14,727 nucleotides of DNA from Clostridiales bacterium (lineage in GTDB: Bacteria; Bacillota; Clostridia; Christensenellales; Aristaeellaceae): assembly GCA_004556155.1 (NCBI GenBank), contig SFIM01000050.1, positions 1-14,727 of the forward strand. Direction: 5' to 3'. This document shows, piece by piece, positions 3,932 to 4,621 of the stretch. The position numbers were made by a program, and so were the translations under genes. The stretch's first letter is position 1. Every line of letters begins with the position of its first letter. The notes below the pieces were generated by a model. That model saw only the letters and a program-made list of their open reading frames with translations. It ran no database searches and was not told the DNA's origin.

Positions 3932-4008
3932 TGGCGATCCCGGCGCGATTCGAACGCGCGACGTTCCGCTTAGGAGGCGGACCCTCTATCCTGCTGAGGT
4001 ACGGGACC
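3932..4008 (-). tRNA. tRNA-Arg (anticodon CCU), 77 nt with encoded CCA
   Basis: The hand-folded cloverleaf is GGTCCCG TA CCTC AGCAGGATA GAGG G TCCGC CTCCTAA GCGGA ACGTC GCGCG TTCGAAT CGCGC CGGGATC G CCA. All stems pair (one G-U in the acceptor). T8, A14, G18G19, T33, the T54T55C56 loop and G53-C61 are present. The D stem has an unusual C10-G25 pair. Confidence 0.93.
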
Positions 4009-4013
4009 ATGTC

Positions 4014-4044
4014 CTCGAAATCCTTATTTCACAAGGCTTTCGAG
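4014..4044. repeat. Conserved leader hairpin immediately 5' of the tRNA-Arg (copy 1 of 2)
   Basis: On the minus strand it reads CTCGAAAGCCTT-GTGAAAT-AAGGATTTCGAG, 11 bp plus one mismatch. On the plus strand the same hairpin is followed by CTTTTCGTTCTT, so it could act as a terminator for plus-strand read-through. Confidence 0.55.
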
Positions 4045-4234
4045 CTTTTCGTTCTTCCTGACCGAGGGAAGTAATCCGGGCTTTCCGCGTTAGCTGTCTA
4101 ACTGCGGGCGGCGTGTTCGACTTTCACGAGCCCTTCATCTTCCGCCTGATGTTAGCAGTTTGGCGGTAGCTCTGGGAGGGAAAATCGGACGAAATCAGGA
4201 GGAATCTTGCTATCCGGTCGCTCAATTCAGGCGG

Positions 4235-4288
4235 CAGTCCGACTTCTTATTAGGAGGCGACTGCTCTATCCTGCTGAGCTACGGGACC
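4235..4288 (-). pseudogene. tRNA-Arg(CCU)-like 5' half (acceptor 5' strand, D arm, anticodon stem/loop); no T arm or acceptor 3' strand
   Basis: The minus strand reads GGTCCCGTAGCTCAGCAGGATAGAGCAGTCGCCTCCTAA, then diverges into TAAGAAGTCGGACTG. By hand alignment it is ~80% identical to the real tRNA 5' half plus its leader. CAGTC...GACTG can close an extended hairpin. Confidence 0.6.
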
Positions 4289-4293
4289 ATACT

Positions 4294-4325
4294 CTCGAAA
4301 GTCCTTATTTTGCAAGGCTTTCGAG
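4294..4325. repeat. Conserved leader hairpin immediately 5' of tRNA-like copy 2 (copy 2 of 2)
   Basis: It reads CTCGAAAGCCTT-GCAAAAT-AAGG(A)CTTTCGAG, 12 bp with one bulged A. It sits at the same position relative to the GGTCCCG start as hairpin 4014-4044. Confidence 0.55.
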
Positions 4326-4525
4326 GCTTCGGCGATTACTCACCGTGAGGCTGGGGGTGATTTTGGCTAATCTGGAAGGTCGATTTCTAATCAGCTTTTC
4401 TAACTTTGGCGGTAGGACATTTTCCCACCTGCTGATTTTGGCCTTCGGTTCGGGGGCGTCGGAGTGATCGGGATTCCGGGTCACTTCCGAACGCAGTTCG
4501 CACTTTCAGCTTCTGGAAAATCGGT

Positions 4526-4579
4526 GGTCGGCCTTCTTCTTAGGAGGCGGACCCTCTATCCTACTGAGGTACAGGCGCC
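4526..4579 (-). pseudogene. tRNA-Arg(CCU)-like 5' half, second partial copy
   Basis: The minus strand reads GCGCCTGTACCTCAGTAGGATAGAGGGTCCGCCTCCTAA, then diverges into GAAGAAGGCCGACC. The D arm and anticodon 5' stem/loop are nearly identical to the real tRNA. The acceptor strand differs and there is no T arm. GGTC...GACC closes an extended hairpin. Confidence 0.55.
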
Positions 4580-4592
4580 TGAACGTTTATCT

Positions 4593-4621
4593 ATCATAGC
4601 ATAAAACGCAGCGATACGCAA
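4593..4621 (-). promoter_or_regulatory. Sigma-A promoter with extended -10 reading into the tRNA-like / tRNA-Arg modules
   Basis: The minus strand reads TTGCGT (4621-4616), a 17-nt spacer, then TGcTATGAT (-10 at 4598-4593). The -10 ends 13 bp upstream of tRNA-like copy 3. Confidence 0.55.

Follow-up and report, generated by a model that had tools for sequence, protein, structure and literature searches.

Here, we report that a tRNA-Arg(CCU) locus of a gut Clostridia bacterium consists of nested scars of tRNA-carrying integrative elements and is not a new noncoding RNA (ncRNA). The locus lies on the minus strand of a 14,727-nt (14.7-kb) stretch of contig SFIM01000050.1, referred to here as the window, and comprises one intact tRNA-Arg(CCU) gene preceded by two 5' halves of tRNA-Arg genes, which we call copy 3 (next to the promoter) and copy 2 (next to the intact gene). 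We estimate a probability of about 0.9 that this array is a series of nested left attachment-site junctions (attL) produced by serial site-specific integration into the tRNA-Arg(CCU) anticodon loop. This reading rests on the polymorphism of the modules among strains, the exactness of the breaks, the recovery of the displaced 3' halves, the presence of junctions that resemble the attachment site of an element itself (attP), and the tyrosine integrase encoded by related elements.

In the mechanism that we propose, element and target share only the 7-nt anticodon loop CTCCTAA (at most 8 bp). Because this core spans only 7 to 8 bp, integration splits the tRNA gene, and neither junction rebuilds it. 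Each element brings a complete tRNA-Arg(CCU), together with a leader hairpin and a terminator, in its P' arm ~240 to 290 bp from its left end; the newly supplied tRNA replaces the broken gene and then serves as the target of the next element. At the locus described here, the host gene, represented by its promoter and copy 3, would have been split by an older element (E1), the tRNA of E1 (tRNA a, represented by copy 2) would have been split by a second element (E2), and the tRNA of E2 (tRNA b) would be the gene that is now intact (Table 1). E2 would fill the window from position 4249 to position 1 and continue beyond it, with melibiase and sugar-transport cargo. Recombination at CTCCTAA would be catalyzed by an integrase, a role assigned on the basis of genes and junctions.

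Module number and break points at the tRNA-Arg(CCU) locus

ARAGORN called a single tRNA in the window, the tRNA-Arg(CCT) at 3932 to 4008 on the minus strand, and none at the two fragments. This gene matched the Rfam tRNA model (RF00005) with 59 bits, and the sole other tRNA-like signal at an E value of ≤10 was a 16-bit, subthreshold match to copy 3. An Rfam run at gathering thresholds returned no matches, yet in the E-value run the 59 bits of the tRNA exceeded the gathering score, which is 29; the gathering-mode negative should not be taken at face value. A repeat search recovered a three-copy family at 3970 to 4020 (the reference), 4250 to 4300 (84% identical), and 4540 to 4590 (76%), with spacings of 280 and 290 nt, as well as a second repeat that spans the hairpins preceding the tRNAs (4018 to 4064 versus 4299 to 4345). 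BLAST within a 1.7-kb region found the repeat copies with E values of 4e-19 and 9e-11. Tandem Repeats Finder did not detect the modules, because their spacers are too diverged. These results bear out the original prediction, made from the sequence by eye, that the locus holds one intact tRNA-Arg(CCU) and two 5' halves; the start of copy 3, placed at 4579 in that prediction, is in fact 4578. What remains of the tRNA in each partial copy is the 5' acceptor strand, the D arm, the anticodon loop, and the stem strand on the 5' side of that loop. As had also been predicted, both break off at the same point, right after CTCCTAA, and continue into related non-tRNA junctions (GAAGAAGGCCGACC in copy 3 and TAAGAAGTCGGAC in copy 2). 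The D stem of copy 2 is GCTC/GAGC versus CCTC/GAGG in the other two copies, with pairing kept, indicating that copy 2 was once part of a working gene.

The protein encoded next to the array, which belongs to the DUF1846 family, is found in identical form on many human-gut metagenome contigs, and ten of these were compared as conspecific loci (L001 to L010). The ten loci fell into distinct arrangements. Two (L001 and L007) carry three modules arranged as in the window, at 99.9 to 100% identity. Seven of the ten (L002 to L006, L009, and L010) carry only two modules, namely, copy 3 and an intact tRNA-Arg(CCT), tRNA a, at the position of copy 2. In the remaining locus, L008, which also has three modules, the second spacer and element differ from those of the window, and a tyrosine integrase is encoded downstream. 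The left end of E1 was present in 10/10 loci, and that of E2 was missing from the two-module strains. The 97 to 98% homology between the window and the two-module strains stops exactly at position 4250, the last base of CTCCTAA in copy 2. Past this point, the two-module strains continue with their own 3' half (GCGACAGGCCGTGGGTTCGAATCCCGCCGGGATCACCA), terminator, and flank, and the window continues with junction 2, spacer 2, a hairpin, tRNA b (complete and distinct from tRNA a), and another flank. Correspondingly, the 3' half of tRNA b (GCGGAACGTCGCGCG...GGGATCGCCA) differs from that of tRNA a in the other strains (GCGACAGGCCGTGGG...GGGATCACCA). Since a new 3' half, terminator, and flank all lie beyond the break, the incoming DNA brought a whole tRNA gene and not a 5' half. 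Thus, the idea that the array records repeated site-specific recombination with crossover in the anticodon loop was correct, and the accompanying suggestion that the incoming DNA supplied "a new leader plus 5' half" was not; what arrived was a leader, a complete tRNA gene, a terminator, and the rest of an entire element.

The putative host promoter upstream of copy 3 was not flagged by a consensus scan of the window; it is invariant across 12 conspecific loci, and in another species (locus L100), TGCTATAAT occupies the equivalent spot upstream of a 5'-half remnant. A promoter scan found no promoter-like site in the spacers of the window. Plausibly, transcription from this one host promoter reads across about 570 nt of scars to express the intact tRNA b. 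Over the same 12 loci, 33 of 215 sites of spacer 1 (4326 to 4539) were polymorphic (15%), with one indel; the corresponding counts were 0/63 for the promoter and leader and 2/39 and 1/39 for the tRNA halves. Recombination among element variants and relaxed constraint are both possible sources of this variation. Relatives of the DUF1846 protein in other species were at most 74% identical, the best being in Christensenellales/Clostridia metagenome-assembled genomes, and none of them had a tRNA-Arg(CCU) 5' half nearby.

A structurally conserved hairpin ends ~5 nt before each element-borne tRNA (4014 to 4044 and 4294 to 4325 in the window, 8363 to 8397 in L008, and 13420 to 13450 in L100). The two hairpins of the window, which had been pointed out previously, are significantly stable (z = -3.9 and -5.1, respectively). 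In the outer two pairs, both partners differ between the window type (CUCG...CGAG) and the L008 type (GCCG...CGGC), and both versions fold well; the L100 hairpin is much weaker (z = -1.45). This leader hairpin may aid processing or folding of the tRNA.

Displaced 3' halves and attP-like junctions

A search of metagenome contigs for the tRNA a 3' half lacking its own D arm upstream yielded 69 contigs, which carry the right junction (attR) of an element. In 69/69, the sequence upstream of CTCCTAA was not tRNA but the P arm of an element (for example, ...CGTTAGAAACCCAGTAATGG...AAGGCGAACGCTTTTTCGAT/CTCCTAA/GCGACAGG...). ARAGORN was run on 20 of the 69 and found no tRNA on 19; the one call, on L171, was for another, complete tRNA located away from the junction. 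Fourteen attR contigs run on into the flank TTTTGCCTACCA, as in L002. Sixty-five P arms were of sufficient length to be assessed; 46 of these contained [GC]TTAGAAA, and 46 contained GGCGAAC near the core.

Three contigs tie these junctions to the window. The first 4366 nt of L162 are 99.98% identical to the lipase/melibiase region of L001, which is the island downstream of the window tRNA. Approximately 5.2 kb further, beyond SBP, AraC, Phd/ParE, and GmrSD genes, L162 contains a P arm, CTCCTAA, and the 3' half of tRNA a, followed by an L003-type flank at 99.5% identity. The conspecific contigs L181 and L189 were reached via the zinc-ribbon protein of the window (904 to 1335). On both, CTCCTAA connects the same P arm to GCGGAACGCCGCGCGTTCGAATCGCGCCAGGCGCGCCA, followed by a terminator and ordinary chromosome. 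This 3' half pairs with copy 3 at 7/7 acceptor and 5/5 anticodon stem positions, and rejoining copy 3 to it yielded an ARAGORN call of tRNA-Arg(CCT); with the 3' half of tRNA a or b, copy 3 forms just 5/7 acceptor pairs. The perfect pairing with the displaced 3' half thus identifies copy 3 as the 5' half of the gene that the host originally had. In this strain type, the original 3' half is >20 kb from copy 3, which stays behind its own promoter.

Two further junctions resemble attP. On L183, CTCCTAA links the same P arm to an L008-type junction, spacer, hairpin, and tRNA; on L171, it links a P arm to junction 1, which is followed by spacer 1, the hairpin, and the 5' half of tRNA a. By the same logic, an excised L008-type element would carry P arm-CTCCTAA-GAAGAAGCTCGCC, and tRNA a would be rejoined in the chromosome. 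The sequence common to the target site (attB), attL, attR, and the P-core-P' junctions is CTCCTAA, plus a G in most cases (7 to 8 bp). A 7-nt anticodon loop is the overlap region expected for a tyrosine recombinase, and Williams reportedly recognized, in 2002, an anticodon-loop sublocation class of tRNA integration sites. In addition to its attP-like junction, L171 holds a separate attR and a third element type (6724 to 7141, in tRNA orientation). The latter cuts tRNA a at CTCCTAA with the junction GCGCAAGGAGTTCGCAGG..., and its complete tRNA-Arg(CCT), tRNA c (GCATCCG...), starts 42 nt past the core. The 42-nt leader of tRNA c leaves no obvious space for a promoter.

The arms on both sides of the core share repeated words. 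Spacer 1 contains CCGATTTTCC, TGAAAGTGCGAAC, CTACCGCCAAA, GTTAGAAAA, and GATTAGAAA, and spacer 2 contains the same words in changed order. The 16-mer GTGAAAGTCGAACACG and the inverted TTTGGCGGTAG are common to the left end of E2 and the P arm of L162, L181, and L183, and the P arm also repeats several copies of GCTAAC as well as GTTAGAAA. Recurring words in the spacers had been reported in the original prediction, and they proved to be clustered: 5/5 occurrences of GYTAAC in the window fall in 3557 to 4156 and 3/3 of TTAGAAA in 3790 to 4403, so that all lie within 3557 to 4403. A block with the pattern CAAACATTTTG-N-TTTCTAAC recurs in the arms that follow the tRNAs of the window, L002, L008, and L100, and the window's own block, CAACATTTTGCCCTGATTTCTAAC, matches in form those of the L008, L100, and L002 arms. 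We regard the repeated words as putative arm-type sites for an integrase or an accessory protein, with the tRNA gene apparently lying within the P' arm.

Related elements, integrase, and cargo

Locus L008 encodes, ~1 kb downstream of its third module, a 468-amino-acid tyrosine integrase (Phage_integrase). The same stretch holds two HTH_17 (excisionase-like) genes, a WYL/WCX-type protein, and an S24 repressor. Locus L100 belongs to another species, in which other genes flank the locus, and its integrase is 76% identical to that of L008. In L100, the host promoter (TGCTATAAT) is followed by a 5' half (GCACCCG...CCTCCTAA), a junction (GAAAGATGCCGCCTATCAC...), a spacer, a hairpin, a complete tRNA-Arg(CCT), a terminator, an arm with TTTCTAAC words, and the integrase. 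L008 shows the same order, from a 5' half with a GAAGAAG-type junction through spacer, hairpin, tRNA, terminator, and arm to the integrase. The junction and spacer of L100 are homologous to those of L008; this homology across species indicates that they are borne by the element and not by the host. In the window, L002, L008, L100, and L171, the junction is followed after 42 to 290 nt by a complete tRNA-Arg(CCT). The tRNA-Arg(CCT) of L100 (13339 to 13415) has an A-C mismatch in its anticodon stem (CGAGC/GCCCG), and ARAGORN still calls it a tRNA. More distant integrase relatives at 69% identity (P0034) belong to similar elements that do not adjoin a tRNA.

The close L008 relatives L099 and L105 add a sigma-like gene and a DnaB-like helicase, and L106 and L107, whose helicase is 75 to 78% identical, further carry ParA/ParB, a sortase, and SpaA-type pilins. 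L008, L099, and L105 to L111 revealed no phage structural genes and instead carry helicase, ParAB, sortase, pilins, or metabolic cargo. A walk along the L008-type element reached the helicase and, in relatives, the ParAB, sortase, and pilin genes and did not reach the far end.

E2 of the window continues in L001, L007, L182, and L162 with a melibiase/ABC-transporter operon, AraC, Phd/ParE, and GmrSD, followed by the P arm and attR. Taken from position 4249 through position 1 to the L162-type attR, a window-type E2 would be about 14 kb long. A fragment of a Mutator/IS256-family transposase in E2 occupies the place of the integrase in the relatives. Because no integrase is encoded in the sequence seen of E1 or E2, their mobility is historical. 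Equivalents of the terminator behind tRNA b lie after tRNA a in L002 (z = -5.1) and after the original 3' half in L181.

Several other rearrangements were observed in these islands. In L181, L183, and L189, the Mutator transposase (10967 to 11710 in L181) is shortened to 247 amino acids and fused to the Peptidase_C69-creatininase segment, and this fusion is an insertion sequence (IS)-associated rearrangement break point between strain types. A serine-recombinase element (L007, 1 to 1524; L187, 1451 to 3127) interrupts the ABC permease in the cargo of window-type E2. In L186 (419 to 8642), the melibiase block is swapped for RepA_N, ParB, a fusion of a type IV secretion system protein with a resolvase (T4SS-DNA_transf/Resolvase), and an ABC ATPase. 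RHS-repeat toxin fragments and Imm44/SMI1 immunity genes lie in L005, L006, and L009 (about 4500 to 7600) and near the attR of L137 and L138; the tRNA hot spot thus also moves polymorphic-toxin cassettes.

Table 1. Features of the window and their proposed assignment to the host gene and to elements E1 and E2
Feature	Position	Strand	Content or basis
Putative host tRNA-Arg(CCU) promoter	4593-4621	-	-35 TTGCGT (4621-4616), 17-nt spacer, extended -10 TGCTATGAT (4601-4593); read from the sequence, function presumed
5' half of the host's original tRNA-Arg(CCU), 5'(0) (copy 3)	4540-4578	-	GCGCCTGTACCTCAGTAGGATAGAGGGTCCGC + CTCCTAA; acceptor strand GCGCCTG
Crossover core 1, attL of the older element E1	4540-4546	-	CTCCTAA (anticodon loop); same 7 nt at attR and at the attP-like junction in L171
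Left end (P' arm) of E1	4289-4539	-	Junction 1 (GAAGAAGGCCGACC...), spacer 1, pre-tRNA hairpin (4294-4325)
5' half of tRNA-Arg(CCU) a of E1 (copy 2)	4250-4288	-	Includes crossover core 2, CTCCTAA (4250-4256), attL of E2
Left end (P' arm) of E2	4009-4249	-	Junction 2 (TAAGAAGTCGGAC...), spacer 2, pre-tRNA hairpin (4014-4044)
Intact tRNA-Arg(CCU) b, carried by E2	3932-4008	-	ARAGORN, Rfam; only functional copy at the locus
Terminator of tRNA b	3862-3926	-	Long hairpin + U-tract; fold z = -2.7; terminator-like site in scan
Distal part of the E2 P' arm	3521-3861	-	Repeated words GCTAAC, TTTCTAAC, GAAATCAGGG; block CAACATTTTGCCCTGATTTCTAAC
Body of E2, continuing past the window	1-3520		Pfam; no integrase
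Cro/C1-type HTH protein	3141-3368	-	Pfam
Mutator/IS256-family transposase fragment	about 1871-2851	+	Pfam
Double-zinc-ribbon protein	904-1335	+	Pfam
GDSL lipase C terminus	to 602	+	Pfam

Alternative explanations and relation to known systems

Several observations weigh against serial integration as the origin of the array. No single contig contains both attL and attR of one element, and the reconstruction rests on contig overlaps at 98.7 to 99.98% identity, from different samples. No displaced 3' half lies within about 8 kb of the array in L001 to L010 or within 13 kb in L100; those that were found are located further from the array than the ~8-kb range searched around it. No integrase was found in the sequence seen of E1 and E2, no excised circle was seen, and viral contigs yielded no attP pattern, no 5'-half/junction pattern, and no close integrase. 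In L181 and L183, moreover, the melibiase block is fused via the truncated Mutator transposase to the far part of an L002-type island (Peptidase_C69, creatininase, IS110, response regulator [RR], histidine kinase [HK], and PepSY). Owing to such strain rearrangements, the sequence of events, from the arrivals of E1 and E2 to later deletions, cannot be assigned uniquely.

These points have to be set against what other explanations would require. Islands could have been swapped without an integrase, by homologous recombination or gene conversion that used the tRNA 5' half as a homology arm. The tRNA halves are 84 to 97% alike, and IS-mediated rearrangements do occur at the locus. Homologous exchange, however, would replace sequence and not leave an extra half-gene. 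In addition, every junction falls at the same 7 nt, between conserved P and P' arm motifs, and a tyrosine integrase accompanies the module in two species. We consider this account very unlikely.

The original prediction had offered, as its second reading, that the ~650-nt region is a structured leader or a ROOL- or GOLLD-like ncRNA that was duplicated in place and is cotranscribed with the tRNA. Conspecific strains, however, differ by entire modules with breaks at CTCCTAA, spacer 1 is 15% polymorphic and contains an indel, and the same spacer sequences are joined elsewhere to P arms. Rfam searches that included the ROOL, GOLLD, and raiA models found no match in 3200 to 4800, either at the gathering threshold or at an E value of ≤10. 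The extended anticodon hairpins of the two 5' halves, whose closing bases had been thought compensatory, were no more stable than shuffled sequences (z = -0.67 and +0.27) and were dropped from consideration. The significant stability of the pre-tRNA hairpins and the lack of a convincing promoter within the spacers speak for the ncRNA reading, which is nonetheless extremely improbable.

There is next to no chance that an incoming leader and 5' half were fused to the resident 3' half in segments of ~285 bp, as the first reading of the original prediction literally states: the 5' halves do lie upstream of the intact gene, and copy 2 and the intact tRNA do share the acceptor strand GGTCCCG, but the 3' half and all downstream DNA differ at many positions between three- and two-module strains, the old 3' halves are displaced behind P arms, and copy 3 is cognate to the displaced 3' half (7/7 acceptor pairs) and not to the present one (5/7).

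Two other candidates were rejected. A split tRNA of the Nanoarchaeum type was set aside, as the displaced 3' halves lie directly behind P arms with no promoter of their own. For a group I intron in the anticodon loop, there was no Intron_gpI match at an E value of ≤10, and the sequence after the 5' halves is an element arm that is joined elsewhere to P arms.

Serial integration of tRNA-carrying elements has its closest parallels in three known systems. The first is tRNA-dependent lysogeny, in which actinobacteriophage tyrosine integrases use an 8- to 17-bp core in a tRNA gene, no tRNA is rebuilt, and the phage carries the cognate tRNA needed for lysogeny (PMC10865867; Guerrero-Bustamante and Hatfull, 2024). 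Those authors expected it to occur beyond actinobacteriophages and named the Lactobacillus johnsonii prophage Lj965 as a possible case (PMC10865867). Both systems have an attachment site over a tRNA gene, a tyrosine integrase (here assigned from genes in related elements), a short core (7 to 8 bp here), a tRNA left unrestored at attL and attR, and a carried cognate tRNA with the same anticodon. The elements described here differ in being cargo islands or similar to integrative and conjugative or integrative and mobilizable elements (ICEs and IMEs), not evidently phages, and viral contigs provided no match. Their host is a gut Clostridia bacterium, their target is tRNA-Arg(CCU), and the crossover is the anticodon loop itself. 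Furthermore, the substitute tRNA is embedded in the P' arm, immediately behind the host promoter, and the process is iterated: because the tRNA of one element is the next attB, nested arrays of 5' halves result.

The second parallel is the canonical tRNA island, in which island sequence restores the split tRNA at one junction and one displaced fragment is left (Islander; PMC4383910). Shared features are the tyrosine integrase, the 7-nt anticodon-loop overlap flanked by a symmetric stem, displaced tRNA fragments that mark the ends, and a hot spot that holds different islands in different strains. In canonical islands, attP holds the 3' part of the tRNA, so that the gene is restored at attL and the 3' fragment lies at the far end; here, in contrast, there is no restoration, the old gene persists as a 5' half and a 3' half, and the element supplies a complete gene of its own. 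The third parallel is the site-specific accretion of ICEs and IMEs, with its tandem arrays and cis-mobilizable elements (CIMEs) (PMC5704250). As here, successive integrations occur at one attachment site, decayed elements lacking an integrase keep their attachment-site flanks, and hybrid attP-like junctions form between neighbors (as in L171 and L183). In classical accretion, the newcomer sits beside the old element at a regenerated attachment site (PMC5704250), whereas here it is nested inside the tRNA of its predecessor. No description of this arrangement was found in the literature library searched.

Collectively, these data extend the principle of breaking a tRNA gene and bringing one's own from actinobacteriophages to nonphage integrative elements of human-gut Clostridia and show that it can be iterated. 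They explain orphan tRNA halves without new RNA biology. Island finders keyed to an intact tRNA and a 3' fragment could miss such islands, which are delimited precisely by the paired patterns 5' half-CTCCTAA-non-tRNA and non-tRNA-CTCCTAA-3' half. With its large integrase family (over 4000 relatives), 7-bp core, and defined target, the system could help to engineer gut Firmicutes. More tentatively, the locus may act as a capture platform whose single, constitutive host promoter transcribes through the scars into whichever element tRNA is intact, with each newcomer providing a fresh attB so that islands stack. Cargo islands, even those without an integrase, would then be hard to lose, because the only working tRNA-Arg(CCU) would lie inside the newest element, and such tRNA-based addiction might be widespread in gut Clostridia; we regard this wider proposal as doubtful at present. 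The finding nonetheless suggests a route by which cargo such as the melibiase operon may be stabilized in these bacteria.

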